Positions 10,825 through 63,170 of a DNA stretch of 64,000 nt are shown piece by piece (position 1 is the stretch's first letter; each line of letters opens with the position of its first letter). The notes under the pieces were generated by a model, which saw only the letters and a program-made list of their open reading frames with translations, was not told where the DNA came from and did not search any database. A program made the position numbers and the translations under genes. Where the stretch lies: assembly GCF_058153355.1 (NCBI RefSeq), contig NZ_CM177019.1; one strand, written 5' to 3'.

Positions 10825-10998
10825 ATCAGGCTCCGGAGAATTGGGGCCGTCCCCGGTGAAAAGAGGCGTTTGCAGGTCGTCCTGCAAAGCTGATGGTTGA
10901 ACGGGTATTTTGCCAGGTGGCAGGGGAATTTCAACTATTACCTTAGTGACTATCGCAAAAAAACAAACGGCACGACACAGCTGTCGTACCGTTATTGC

Positions 10999-51199: not shown

Positions 51200-52537
51200 A
51201 TGTCTTCGGATGCTGATGCTCACAAAGTGGGCTTAATCCCCGTCACCCTGATGGTGTCGGGGAATATTATGGGGTCAGGTGTTTTTCTGTTACCTGCAAA
51301 CCTGGCCTCCACTGGCGGGATTGCCATTTATGGATGGTTGGTGACGATTATCGGTGCGCTGGGGCTCTCGATGGTATACGCCAAAATGTCGTTCCTCGAC
51401 CCAAGTCCTGGTGGTTCTTACGCTTACGCCCGCCGCTGCTTTGGCCCGTTTCTCGGTTATCAAACCAACGTCCTCTACTGGCTGGCCTGCTGGATCGGCA
51501 ATATCGCCATGGTGGTCATTGGCGTTGGATATTTAAGTTACTTCTTCCCGATTCTGAAAGATCCACTGGTATTAACCATCACCTGCGTCGTGGTGCTGTG
51601 GATCTTCGTCCTGCTGAACATTGTCGGTCCGAAAATGATCACCCGCGTGCAGGCCGTTGCCACCGTGCTGGCGCTGATCCCCATCGTCGGGATTGCCGTA
51701 TTTGGCTGGTTCTGGTTCCGTGGTGAAACCTATATGGCGGCATGGAACGTCAGCGGCCTGGGCACCTTCGGCGCGATTCAAAGTACCCTTAACGTTACGC
51801 TGTGGTCGTTCATCGGTGTGGAAAGTGCCTCCGTTGCCGCAGGTGTGGTGAAAAACCCGAAACGCAACGTCCCTATCGCCACCATTGGTGGGGTATTGAT
51901 TGCCGCCGTTTGCTATGTGCTCTCCACCACCGCGATTATGGGGATGATCCCTAATGCCGCACTGCGCGTTTCTGCCTCGCCATTCGGTGATGCCGCACGG
52001 ATGGCGTTGGGTGACACCGCCGGGGCCATTGTTTCCTTCTGCGCAGCTGCGGGTTGCTTAGGTTCACTGGGCGGCTGGACGTTGCTGGCGGGTCAAACGG
52101 CGAAAGCCGCTGCCGATGACGGGCTGTTCCCACCGATTTTTGCCCGTGTAAACAAAGCGGGTACGCCAGTGGCAGGGCTGATTATCGTCGGTATTTTGAT
52201 GACCATCTTCCAGCTCAGTAGCATTTCGCCAAACGCGACTAAAGAGTTCGGTCTGGTTTCTTCCGTGTCGGTCATCTTTACACTGGTGCCATATCTTTAC
52301 ACCTGTGCGGCGTTACTGCTGCTCGGCCACGGTCACTTTGGTAAAGCACGCCGGGCATATCTGGCAGTTACTACCATTGCCTTCCTCTACTGCATCTGGG
52401 CCGTGGTGGGGTCCGGGGCGAAAGAGGTTATGTGGTCATTTGTCACCCTGATGGTCATCACCGCCATGTATGCGCTGAATTACAACCGGCTGCATAAAAA
52501 CCCGTATCCCTTAGATGCACCAATAAGCAAAGATTAA
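51200..52537 (+). CDS. adiC: Arginine:agmatine antiporter AdiC
   Basis: 445-aa APC-family [40 protein letters not shown]…; paralogous to cadB. Confidence 0.97.
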
Positions 52538-52577
52538 TTCCCCTTAATCCAGCAAACATAAAAGCCAACCTTAAGAA

Positions 52578-52594
52578 CTTAAGGTTGGCTTAAT
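52578..52594 (+). promoter_or_regulatory. PmrA (BasR) box upstream of eptA: CTTAAG-N5-CTTAAT
   Basis: CTTAAGGTTGGCTTAAT about 45 bp upstream of eptA start; a further CTTAAG half-site lies immediately upstream. Confidence 0.7.
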
Positions 52595-54949: not shown

Positions 54950-54958
54950 TTGAATCTG

Positions 54959-56050
54959 ATGCGTTTTCTGCGCCGACCAATATCGCTGCGCCAACGGCTG
55001 ATATTGACCATCGGGGCCATTTTGTTGGTGTTTGAGCTGATCAGCGTCTTCTGGCTATGGCATGAAAGTACCGAGCAGATTCAGCTGTTTGAGCAGGCGC
55101 TACGCGACAATCGTAACAACGATCGCCACATCATGCGTGAGATCCGCGAGGCGGTCGCCAGCCTGATTGTCCCTGGCGTCTTTATGGTCAGCCTGACGCT
55201 ATTTATCTGCTATCAGGCGGTACGCCGCATCACCCGCCCGCTGGCGGAGCTGCAAAAAGAGCTGGAAGCGCGCACCGCCGACAACTTAACGCCCATTGCC
55301 ATTCACAGCGCCACCCTCGAAATCGAAGCGGTGGTTTCAGCGTTAAACGATCTGGTCAGTCGCCTGACCAACACGCTGGATAACGAAAGGTTGTTTACCG
55401 CTGACGTCGCGCACGAACTGCGAACGCCACTGGCGGGGGTGCGTTTGCATCTGGAACTGCTGGCGAAAACGCATCACATTGATGTAGCACCGTTAGTGGC
55501 ACGACTTGATCAGATGATGGAGAGTGTCTCCCAGCTACTGCAACTGGCGCGTGCCGGACAGTCATTTTCTTCCGGTAATTATCAACATGTAAAACTGCTG
55601 GAAGATGTCATTCTCCCCTCGTATGACGAACTCAGTACCATGCTCGACCAGCGCCAGCAAACCCTGCTATTGCCAGAGAGCGCCGCCGACATCACCGTTC
55701 AGGGTGATGCAACCCTGCTGCGGATGTTATTGCGAAACCTGGTAGAAAACGCCCATCGTTACAGCCCGCAAGGCAGCAACATTATGATTAAGCTGCAAGA
55801 CGATGGCGGAGCGGTCATGGCCGTTGAAGATGAAGGGCCGGGTATTGATGAGAGTAAATGTGGAGAGTTGAGTAAAGCGTTTGTACGAATGGACAGCCGT
55901 TATGGCGGGATTGGTCTGGGGTTAAGTATTGTCAGCCGCATTACACAGTTGCATCACGGGCAGTTTTTCCTGCAAAACCGGCAAGAGACTTCTGGCACAC
56001 GGGCCTGGATACGGCTGAAAAAAGATCAGTACGTGGCAAACCAGATATAA
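54959..56050 (+). CDS. basS: Sensor histidine kinase BasS (PmrB), 363 aa
   Basis: MRFLRRPISLRQRLILTIGAILLVFELISVFWLWHES…; H-box ADVAHELRTPL; the ORF track used an upstream TTG. Confidence 0.95.
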   Translation: MRFLRRPISLRQRLILTIGAILLVFELISVFWLWHESTEQIQLFEQALRDNRNNDRHIMREIREAVASLIVPGVFMVSLTLFICYQAVRRITRPLAELQKELEARTADNLTPIAIHSATLEIEAVVSALNDLVSRLTNTLDNERLFTADVAHELRTPLAGVRLHLELLAKTHHIDVAPLVARLDQMMESVSQLLQLARAGQSFSSGNYQHVKLLEDVILPSYDELSTMLDQRQQTLLLPESAADITVQGDATLLRMLLRNLVENAHRYSPQGSNIMIKLQDDGGAVMAVEDEGPGIDESKCGELSKAFVRMDSRYGGIGLGLSIVSRITQLHHGQFFLQNRQETSGTRAWIRLKKDQYVANQI

Positions 56051-56115
56051 AGAAAGCTGCTGACCACCAGCACGCTGAACACGGTAGTTAAACTTTCATA
56101 AACACGGTTTTTCAT
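56026..56115 (-). CDS. pmrR: Small membrane peptide PmrR (29 aa), antisense to and overlapping the basS 3' end
   Basis: Hand-translated minus-strand ORF MKNRVYESLTTVFSVLVVSSFLYIWFATY*; strong RBS GGAGGAG 7 nt upstream; PmrA box just upstream. Confidence 0.8.
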   Translation of the reverse strand: MKNRVYESLTTVFSVLVVSSFLYIWFATY

Positions 56116-56159
56116 TGCACTCTCCTCCGTTAACCTGGAGGAGAGTATGCGCGTCAGAG

Positions 56160-56176
56160 ATTAAGTGAACCTTAAG
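56160..56176 (-). promoter_or_regulatory. PmrA (BasR) box upstream of pmrR: CTTAAG-N5-CTTAAT on the minus strand
   Basis: Minus-strand read CTTAAGGTTCACTTAAT, about 45 bp upstream of the pmrR ATG. Confidence 0.7.
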
Positions 56177-56226
56177 AGTTCAATTGGCCTAATAAGACAG
56201 CGTCACATCAGGCCATCCGTTTCAGC

Positions 56227-57729
56227 TTATTCATCAATTCGCGGATGCTGCTGCACCAGGCGGGTACGTTTCGCCTGCAAATCGGCAATCTCGTGGTCAA
56301 TATCATCGATTTTCTGCTCGATATTATCGTAATGCTCGACGAGAATTTCCTTCGCTTCCTGTATATCTGACGCCGCCGGTGTCGCACCTTTCAACGGACG
56401 ATTCGCCGTCTCTTTCATGGTTACGCCGGTGATTAAACCAACCACCGCCACTACCATCAGGTAATAGGCAGGCATCATCAGATTCTGCGAGCTTTCGACC
56501 AGCCAGGCCGCCAACGTTGGCGTCAGACCGGCAACCAGCACCGAAATATTAAATGCCGCCGCCAGCGCGCTGTATCGGATATGCGTCGGGAACATCGCTG
56601 GCAAGGTAGAAGCCATAACGCCCGTAAAGCAGTTAAGGATCACCGCCAGCATCAGTAACCCGGCAAAAATCAGGCCGATGACGTTACTGTTAATCAGAAT
56701 AAACGCCGGGATCGCCAACACAAACAGTGCAACACTACCAAGTAGCACAAACGGACGACGGCCAAAACGGTCACTCAGCAAGCCCATCACCGGCTGGACA
56801 AACAGCATACCGATCATAATGGCGATAATAATCAGCACCCCGTGGTCTTCGGAGTAATGCAGGTTATGCGACAAATAACTCGGCATATAGGTCAGCAACA
56901 TGTAGTAAGTCACGTTGGTGGCAATTACCAGACCAATACATGTCAACAGGCTGCGCCAGTATTTAGTGGCAATCTCTTTAAACGAGACTTTCGGGCCATC
57001 CTGCAAACCTTCGCGGTCGCCCTGTTCCAGTTTATCAACATGCTGCTGGAACGCCGGAGTTTCTTCCAGCGCATGGCGCAGGTAAAGCCCGATAATCCCT
57101 AACGGCAGAGCAATAAAGAACGGAATACGCCAGCCCCAGTCGAGGAAGTTCGCTTCGCCGACAATGGTCGAAATTAACACCACCACGCCCGCACCCAGCA
57201 CAAACCCGGCAATAGAACCGAAGTCCAGCCAGCTGCCCATAAAGCCACGTTTACGGTCAGGGGAGTATTCCGCAACAAATATCGACGCCCCGGTATATTC
57301 ACCGCCGACCGAGAAACCTTGTGCCATCTTACAGATCAACAGCAGAATCGGTGCCCAAATACCAATCGTGTCGTAGGACGGTATTAAGCCAATACAGAAC
57401 GTACTGATCGACATAATCACAATAGTGATAGCGAGGATCTTCTGGCGACCATATTTATCGCCCAACATACCAAAGAAGAGTCCGCCAAGCGGTCGAATCA
57501 GAAAGGGAACGGAGAAAGTGGCAAGTGCAGCAACCATCTGCACGCTGGGGTCAGCCCCCGGGAAAAAAACTTTACCTAATGCGTAAGCAACAAAACCATA
57601 AACACCAAAATCGAACCATTCCATTGCATTACCCAGTGATGCTGCGGTAATGGCTTTACGCAGTTTACCGTCATCAATAATAGTGACATCACGAAGGGTA
57701 ATCGGTTTTACTTTTTTCCTTTTCAGCAT
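56227..57729 (-). CDS. proP: Osmosensing proline/glycine betaine:H+ symporter ProP (500 aa)
   Basis: MLKRKKVKPITLRDVTIIDDGKLRKAITAASLGNAMEWFDFGVYG…; MFS with C-terminal coiled coil (…IDDIDHEIADLQAKRTRLVQQHPRIDE). Confidence 0.96.
   Translation of the reverse strand: MLKRKKVKPITLRDVTIIDDGKLRKAITAASLGNAMEWFDFGVYGFVAYALGKVFFPGADPSVQMVAALATFSVPFLIRPLGGLFFGMLGDKYGRQKILAITIVIMSISTFCIGLIPSYDTIGIWAPILLLICKMAQGFSVGGEYTGASIFVAEYSPDRKRGFMGSWLDFGSIAGFVLGAGVVVLISTIVGEANFLDWGWRIPFFIALPLGIIGLYLRHALEETPAFQQHVDKLEQGDREGLQDGPKVSFKEIATKYWRSLLTCIGLVIATNVTYYMLLTYMPSYLSHNLHYSEDHGVLIIIAIMIGMLFVQPVMGLLSDRFGRRPFVLLGSVALFVLAIPAFILINSNVIGLIFAGLLMLAVILNCFTGVMASTLPAMFPTHIRYSALAAAFNISVLVAGLTPTLAAWLVESSQNLMMPAYYLMVVAVVGLITGVTMKETANRPLKGATPAASDIQEAKEILVEHYDNIEQKIDDIDHEIADLQAKRTRLVQQHPRIDE

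Positions 57730-61865: not shown

Positions 61866-63170
<1,305 letters not shown>

Follow-up and report, generated by a model that had tools for sequence, protein, structure and literature searches.

The pmrR Module Convergent with basS/pmrB: a Known Small Regulatory Gene and a Hairpin That Might Limit Its Expression to PmrA-Initiated Transcripts

Introduction

PmrR of Salmonella enterica and Escherichia coli goes back to Kato et al. (2012, Mol Cell 47:897), as that work is cited in PMC11429745 and PMC8004244. In the Salmonella model, as summarized in PMC8004244, PmrR inhibits LpxT, less Fe3+ is bound and PmrB is damped. The authors of PMC8004244 also found that the region 3′ of pmrB raises PmrB expression in E. 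coli, a result that they regard as conflicting with the Salmonella feedback model, and they mention a 90-bp ORF at this site together with its 25-bp overlap with pmrB. Both the overlap and the PmrA-box promoter of pmrR have been described previously (PMC8129183). In a PmrA-constitutive strain, deletion of the PmrA box alone rendered the cells polymyxin-susceptible and deoxycholate-resistant, and deleting lpxT in the box-deleted strain brought polymyxin resistance back; ectopic pmrR restored resistance as well, according to data that the authors did not show (PMC8129183). The gene, its PmrA box and the overlap with pmrB have already been studied for polymyxin and bile-salt resistance.

A further report used Ribo-RET, a profiling of translation initiation sites, to find small proteins of E. 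coli that are induced when Mg2+ is low, PmrR being one of them, and detected PmrR-6xHis in the membrane fraction of E. coli (PMC11429745). Deletion of pmrR caused a growth defect at low Mg2+ that was complemented by plasmid-borne pmrR and not by a start-codon mutant. The growth defects seen upon deletion and upon overexpression of pmrR were both independent of lpxT, so that PmrR may have targets besides LpxT. Low Mg2+ had no effect on a pmrR promoter reporter, though RNA-seq had suggested more pmrR transcription under this stress (PMC11429745).

Results

Identity and Annotation of the Locus

The window (the whole stretch of DNA analyzed, 64,000 nt of contig NZ_CM177019.1, RefSeq assembly GCF_058153355.1) contains a feature at positions 56026..56176 that a first-pass annotation had read as a 29-codon minus-strand gene with its own PmrA/BasR site, and had named pmrR. 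The genes at the locus are as follows.

54950..56050, plus strand: basS/pmrB sensor kinase gene, a 366-codon ORF convergent with pmrR (ORF list; RefSeq annotation of the matching E. coli locus)
56026..56115, minus strand: pmrR coding sequence, 29 codons plus stop, with an ATG start (ORF list; RefSeq and K-12 annotation; NCBIfam)
56227..57729, minus strand: proP, upstream of pmrR on the same strand (RefSeq annotation mapped from the E. coli locus; tblastn)

The name agrees with that given by RefSeq/PGAP, which places "pmrR: LpxT activity modulator PmrR" at exactly the same position between proP and pmrB, and with the K-12 MG1655 entry b4703, "small regulatory membrane protein PmrR". In one matching E. 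coli genome the gene is WP_000797657.1, flanked by proP and by pmrB-basR-eptA-adiC. Comparison with K-12 showed differences at 6 of 401 positions, none of them inside 56026..56176, so that the whole module is identical base for base. The 401-nt query around the site was matched in 5408 of 5426 complete E. coli genomes, with pmrB, pmrR and proP as the features under the match. The 151-nt module itself was found in 5408 of the 5426 genomes, and the identity was at least 99% in 5254 of 5409 matching records. This identifies the feature as pmrR, a known gene that had already been annotated and characterized by experiment. Its detection was a correct rediscovery and biologically nothing new, in which a real 29-codon regulatory gene and the site of its regulator were recovered from raw sequence alone.

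Translation of the minus-strand ORF at 56026..56115 gave a peptide of 29 amino acids, MKNRVYESLTTVFSVLVVSSFLYIWFATY, and reading the minus strand across 55800..56400 gave the pmrR stretch aactCTTAAGGTTCACTTAATctctgacgcgCATACTctcctccaggttaacGGAGGAGagtgcaATGAAAAAC. The peptide scored 74.2 bits (cut-off, 30) with the NCBIfam equivalog family NF033224 (PmrR), residues 1-29 aligning with positions 1-29 of the 29-position profile; a Pfam search with the same peptide returned no meaningful match. It has one hydrophobic membrane-spanning segment (maximum of 1.94 in a 19-residue Kyte-Doolittle window), and the pmrR product is a small single-pass membrane protein. A terminator-like hairpin within the coding sequence (56072..56058) was not counted as a feature, since one such site was found against 0.5 expected by chance. 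The consensus of Rfam family RF02052 also draws a stem at this site.

The PmrA Box and the Predicted Promoter

The elements upstream of the start codon, together with a second PmrA box elsewhere in the window, are listed here.

56160..56176, minus strand: PmrA/BasR box CTTAAGGTTCACTTAAT, the direct repeat CTTAAG-GTTCA-CTTAAT (exact pattern match)
56144..56149, minus strand: candidate -10 hexamer CATACT (family consensus nAnACT), 10 nt after the box (alignment conservation)
56122..56128, minus strand: Shine-Dalgarno sequence GGAGGAG, 6 nt before the pmrR ATG
52578..52594, plus strand: second PmrA box CTTAAGGTTGGCTTAAT, a known kind of site, 46 nt before the eptA ATG (eptA start from the RefSeq annotation)

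Both regulatory elements claimed by the first-pass annotation were present: the strong GGAGGAG sequence (56128..56122), and a direct repeat that it had placed about 45 bp upstream, which is an exact box (56176..56160) whose last base lies 44 nt before the ATG. In the 64 kb, two sites fitted the exact pattern CTTAAK-N5-CTTAAK, 0.02 being expected, and a count of two or more was not reached in any of 100 shuffled sequences. When one mismatch was allowed, five sites were found in the window against 3.4 expected; this lack of enrichment means that only the exact box is informative.

The candidate hexamer was examined in an alignment of 53 sequences, in which A2, A4, C5 and T6 of nAnACT were nearly invariant and the spacer between box and hexamer was 10 nt in 48 of the 53. 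CATACT is, on this conservation, the probable -10 hexamer of pmrR. An A occurred 7 nt past the hexamer in 32 of 53 sequences and would set the transcription start of pmrR at the loop of the hairpin described below; we infer a start at about 56135-56137. A scan for the sigma-70 consensus detected no promoter at pmrR, a result that was not counted against one because an activator-dependent promoter without a -35 element would escape such a scan. In promoters controlled by activators of the OmpR/PhoB type, the activator box usually stands in place of the -35 element, and the PmrA box would replace it at pmrR. The PmrA footprint at pbgP of Klebsiella pneumoniae, the one relevant result of a literature search on PmrA boxes and transcription starts, reaches -19/-22 and is indirectly consistent with a box ending near -24. 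A literature search for PmrA as a class II activator returned nothing useful.

Conservation across Enterobacteriaceae

Eighty loci from species-representative genomes were fetched with BasS as the query, a choice that is unbiased as to the presence of pmrR, and the DNA 3′ of basS was inspected. Loci with a BasS identity of at least 61% made up the Enterobacteriaceae set (63 loci), and the remaining 17 the outgroup set. The module was defined as a PmrA box with at most one mismatch (general form YTTAAK-N5-YTTAAK), followed after 41-46 nt by an ATG and a hydrophobic ORF of 28-33 codons ending near the pmrB stop. A pmrR module adjoining and convergent with pmrB was found in 55 of the 63 Enterobacteriaceae species, one locus starting with GTG 40 nt after the box, and in none of the 17 outgroup loci (among them Pectobacterium, Rahnella, Serratia, Ewingella and Rouxiella). 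The genera that carry it include Escherichia, Citrobacter, Klebsiella, Raoultella, Kluyvera, Kosakonia, Phytobacter, Pseudocitrobacter, Trabulsiella, Yokenella and Pluralibacter. The small ORF is thus conserved in related genomes.

Identity among the PmrR peptides falls to ~35%, with a hydrophobic core and a C-terminal W-x-x-[TS]-[YF] motif retained. Fifty-six loci combined the module with an ATG start, namely those of 54 related species, that of the window and that of one E. coli genome. The pmrR frame was open in all 56, and each of the other five frames was open in at most 18. Median pairwise dN/dS was 0.14 in the 29-codon group and 0.28 in the 30-codon group. The ORF is under purifying selection, which is more than chance would provide. 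These data bear on the possibility that ORF and box merely coincide in an intergenic region. Short ORFs are indeed common here, 90 ORFs of at least 20 amino acids overlapping the listed 6-kb region, but only 0.02 exact boxes are expected per window, the distance from box to ATG is fixed at 41-46 nt in 55 species, and the peptide has a match in NCBIfam, to which the published genetics of the locus (PMC8129183) can be added. Box rarity, family match, fixed spacing, and the conservation and dN/dS of the frame were together taken to rule out coincidence, to which we attach next to no weight.

The Overlap with basS/pmrB

As the first-pass annotation had stated, pmrR overlaps the 3′ end of basS by 25 bp (56026..56050), the basS stop codon included. 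Across species the two genes are separated by up to 8 nt or overlap by up to 57 nt (-8 to +57 nt), the value being zero or less in many genera. The convergent adjacency of pmrR and pmrB is conserved; the antisense overlap is not, and the variation rules out the 25-bp overlap as a conserved functional element.

It could be argued that antisense transcription itself regulates basS, through convergent interference or RNA pairing, and that the peptide is secondary. RNA from the pmrR strand of K-12 does run far into antisense basS, with a 3′ terminus at 4332305 (window position 55926) and a Rho termination region at 4332468 (window ~55763; significance score 2.7e-37) that is annotated as antisense to basS; the effect of the region 3′ of pmrB on PmrB expression (PMC8004244) points the same way. 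Against this stand the variable overlap of the coding sequences and the genetics of PMC8129183, where ectopic complementation by pmrR (data not shown by the authors) and suppression by deletion of lpxT point to a trans-acting peptide. We consider regulation of basS by the antisense overlap unlikely.

A Small-RNA Family at the Same Locus

A search of Rfam returned one match that covers the locus.

56019..56184, minus strand: RF02052, "STnc630 enterobacterial sRNA", 182 bits against a gathering threshold of 55, full model 1-166

Such a score might be taken to mean that the locus is a non-coding sRNA in which the 29-codon ORF is incidental, as might the detection in K-12 of RNAs that end at the pmrR ATG and thus lack the ORF. 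The model, however, takes in promoter DNA, namely the PmrA box and the -10 hexamer, and its bounds therefore define no discrete sRNA. Moreover, all 56 loci preserve the frame, which is under purifying selection, despite the divergence of the peptides, and translation of pmrR and the failure of its start-codon mutant to complement have been published (PMC11429745). The conserved ORF under selection, together with translation and function as reported in PMC11429745, was held to rule out STnc630 as a non-coding RNA, and we regard this explanation as very improbable. A full-text literature search for STnc630 gave no match.

A Conserved Hairpin at the Shine-Dalgarno Sequence

The Shine-Dalgarno sequence of pmrR, whose GAGG/GGAG core is conserved in place in the alignment of 53 species, forms part of a conserved hairpin.

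56119..56146, minus strand: hairpin, arms ACTCTCCTCC and GGAGGAGAGT around the loop aggttaac (inverted repeat, covariation, Rfam RF02052 structure)

Its arms (56146..56137 and 56128..56119) are a perfect 10-bp inverted repeat separated by an 8-nt loop. The Shine-Dalgarno sequence itself makes up the 3′ arm, and the 5′ arm starts within the -10 hexamer. A 61-nt RNA containing the hairpin had a minimum free energy of -22.7 kcal/mol (z = -3.85), and RNA beginning at the predicted pmrR start folded at only -2.4 kcal/mol; the medians for the 53 species were -14.5 kcal/mol for the full stretch and -1.3 kcal/mol for RNA from the predicted start.

The stem is also supported by covariation. In the alignment, 87.9% of cells were paired, compared with 46-53% when the partner was slid by 1-3 columns, and the covariation score was matched by none of 500 shuffles. 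Five stem pairs were changed on both sides, and one pair occurred as CG in 18 sequences, AU in 17, GC in 6 and GU in 6. Within the inner nine pairs, G-U was seen in 35 cells and A-C in 9, the terminal pair being A-C in 18 sequences. The excess of G-U favors folding as RNA of the pmrR strand but is no more than suggestive, since the terminal pair points in the opposite direction. Pantoea sp. A4, the sole locus with a divergent nearest neighbor, is without the stem; it is a single case and has the least typical ORF.

RNA 3′ Ends and the Upstream Gene

Published data place RNA 3′ ends of K-12 immediately beyond the hairpin.

56114..56115, minus strand: published RNA 3′ ends in K-12, 4-5 nt past the hairpin (PMC7815308; PMC10687069)

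Term-seq located a 3′ end at 4332116 on the plus strand of K-12, classed as "internal pmrR" (PMC7815308, supplementary file 1); the flanking sequence printed there agrees with the window, in which this end is position 56115. TRS gave a 3′ terminus peak at 4332112-4332120 with a dominant position of 4332117 (PMC10687069, Supplementary Data 2), which corresponds to 56114. According to the latter paper, SEnd-seq also shows the upstream gene terminating within the pmrR coding sequence (PMC10687069). RNAs that end just past the hairpin must have begun upstream of it, and carry no pmrR ORF. The stem is not followed by a U-tract, which suggests a non-canonical terminator or a stop to trimming.

The likely source of the read-through RNA that ends at the hairpin is proP. 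A gene on the same strand lies upstream of pmrR in nearly all module loci, namely proP in Escherichia and Citrobacter amalonaticus, uvrB in most other genera, and another gene in a few loci; in some the stop codon of the upstream ORF overlaps the PmrA box. Since the upstream neighbor varies, the hairpin travels with pmrR and not with a particular neighbor. The module as such is retained across most Enterobacteriaceae whether that neighbor is proP or uvrB.

Discussion

The locus is, with near certainty, pmrR as known from the literature, that is, a PmrA box-activated promoter and a 29-residue inner-membrane peptide that inhibits LpxT, the features being observed here and the function taken from published work. 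Phosphorylated PmrA/BasR would bind the CTTAAG-N5-CTTAAT box and switch on transcription, and the short mRNA, with its strong Shine-Dalgarno sequence, would yield a single-pass inner-membrane peptide of 29 residues. LpxT attaches a second phosphate group at position 1 of lipid A; by blocking this enzyme, PmrR would leave that position free for addition of phosphoethanolamine by EptA. The surface would become less negative, with polymyxin resistance going up and deoxycholate resistance going down. In the proposal made for Salmonella, the lower surface charge would reduce the Fe3+ bound and damp PmrB, closing a negative feedback loop; such a loop may operate in E. coli as well. The first-pass annotation had described the locus as a feedback module overlapping the gene of its own regulator. 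The overlap is there in the window and is not a conserved trait, and the feedback was proposed for Salmonella, the E. coli data being partly discordant.

To this established picture our analysis makes two modest additions. Conservation extends to the module, whichever of proP and uvrB adjoins it, and not to the overlap with pmrB, and a covarying hairpin may limit PmrR to PmrA-initiated transcripts. The function of this hairpin is the one part that might be new, and we did not meet it in the accessible literature as an insulator of pmrR.

We put forward only tentatively, and with somewhat more doubt than confidence, that the hairpin insulates pmrR, hiding the Shine-Dalgarno sequence in read-through RNA, leaving it free in mRNA started by PmrA, and shielding basS from convergent read-through. 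The 5′ arm would lie upstream of the PmrA-dependent start, so that the pmrR mRNA would lack it, its Shine-Dalgarno sequence would be free and it would be translated. Read-through RNA, from proP in Escherichia and from uvrB in Klebsiella and many other genera, would hold both arms and hide the ribosome-binding site; it would end at the hairpin or be stopped further on by Rho. PmrR synthesis would then be confined to times of PmrA activity. If the hairpin acts in this way, it would explain how a small protein that is toxic upon overexpression (PMC11429745) is kept silent 3′ of an actively transcribed gene.

Among the systems with which the locus may be compared, PmrR of E. coli K-12 (b4703) is the same gene, with identical module DNA, position, box and 29-residue peptide and no sequence difference. 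Salmonella PmrR is the protein for which feedback on PmrB was proposed, a proposal that the E. coli data match only in part. MgrB, likewise a small single-pass membrane peptide, damps the two-component system that activates its gene (as in PMC11429745). The two sequences are unrelated, however, and whereas MgrB, which is PhoP-activated, acts directly on the sensor kinase PhoQ, the target of PmrR is a lipid A enzyme and feedback, if any, would run indirectly via surface charge. The Rfam family STnc630 (RF02052) is the same locus as pmrR, and its consensus structure includes the same Shine-Dalgarno hairpin; it is filed as a small-RNA gene, whereas our data and the literature describe a protein-coding mRNA plus its promoter.

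The hairpin itself may be compared with a different class of genes. In the fold-back inhibition of the IS10 and IS50 transposases, a hairpin covers the ribosome-binding site solely in RNA initiated outside the gene, since transcripts from the gene's own start begin downstream of the 5′ arm of the hairpin. The pmrR hairpin would resemble this arrangement: a stable hairpin that pairs the Shine-Dalgarno sequence and transcripts from upstream on the same strand are both present, and the arrangement as a whole would follow from the predicted start. Unlike the transposase genes, pmrR is a chromosomal regulon gene whose start is placed by prediction, and its hairpin coincides with a 3′ end of the upstream RNA.

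PmrA Boxes and Adjacent Hairpins

The PmrA box of eptA (52578..52594, + strand) was found to lie inside the 3′ arm of a terminator-like hairpin located downstream of the adiC stop at 52537, and the 5′ side of the same stem carries a third CTTAAG half-site, which is created by the stem itself.

52562..52594, + strand, terminator-like hairpin with a 13-bp stem: AAGCCAACCTTAAG-AA-CTTAAGGTTGGCTT, followed by AATTTTGCTT

Given this placement of the eptA box, both PmrA promoters of the locus therefore abut the 3′-end hairpin of the same-strand upstream gene.

Transcription Antisense to basS

Published maps of E. coli K-12, transferred to the window, place an RNA 3′ terminus (K-12 4332305) at 55926 (- strand) and a Rho termination region (K-12 4332468) at about 55763 (- strand), both well within antisense basS. 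From these mapped ends, the overlap antisense to basS therefore amounts to ~125-290 nt as RNA, versus 25 bp between the coding sequences. Annotations disagree on the basS start itself (54950..54958, + strand): PGAP uses the TTG at 54950 immediately 3′ of the basR stop (366 aa), whereas the K-12 annotation begins 9 nt downstream (363 aa).

RNA Family Matches

Rfam RF02052 ('STnc630 enterobacterial sRNA') matched 56019..56184 (- strand), a segment corresponding to the promoter and coding region of pmrR, and its listing as a non-coding RNA gene family looks like a misclassification. Other RNA family matches in the window include:

10842..10888, - strand, Guanidine-II (mini-ykkC) riboswitch, 50.4 bits (gathering threshold, 32)
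61871..61947, + strand, nucleoid-associated non-coding RNA naRNA4 (RF02564), 97 bits

Loci without pmrR downstream of pmrB and the proP-pmrR Interval

In seven Enterobacteriaceae loci (L009, L019, L032, L035, L046, L047, and L081), each with 400 nt present downstream of pmrB, neither a pmrR-like ORF nor a PmrA box (at most one mismatch, pmrR strand) was found in that downstream DNA. These loci, which include Superficieibacter, one Pluralibacter MAG, and 'Escherichia sp. ESNIH1', may have undergone loss or relocation of pmrR.

Between the pmrR PmrA box and the proP stop lies an inverted repeat whose halves pair as a stem when the 147-nt RNA is folded.

56185..56215, imperfect inverted repeat, 79% complementary: TGGCCTAATAAGAC / GTCACATCAGGCCA

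This repeat resembles a REP element.
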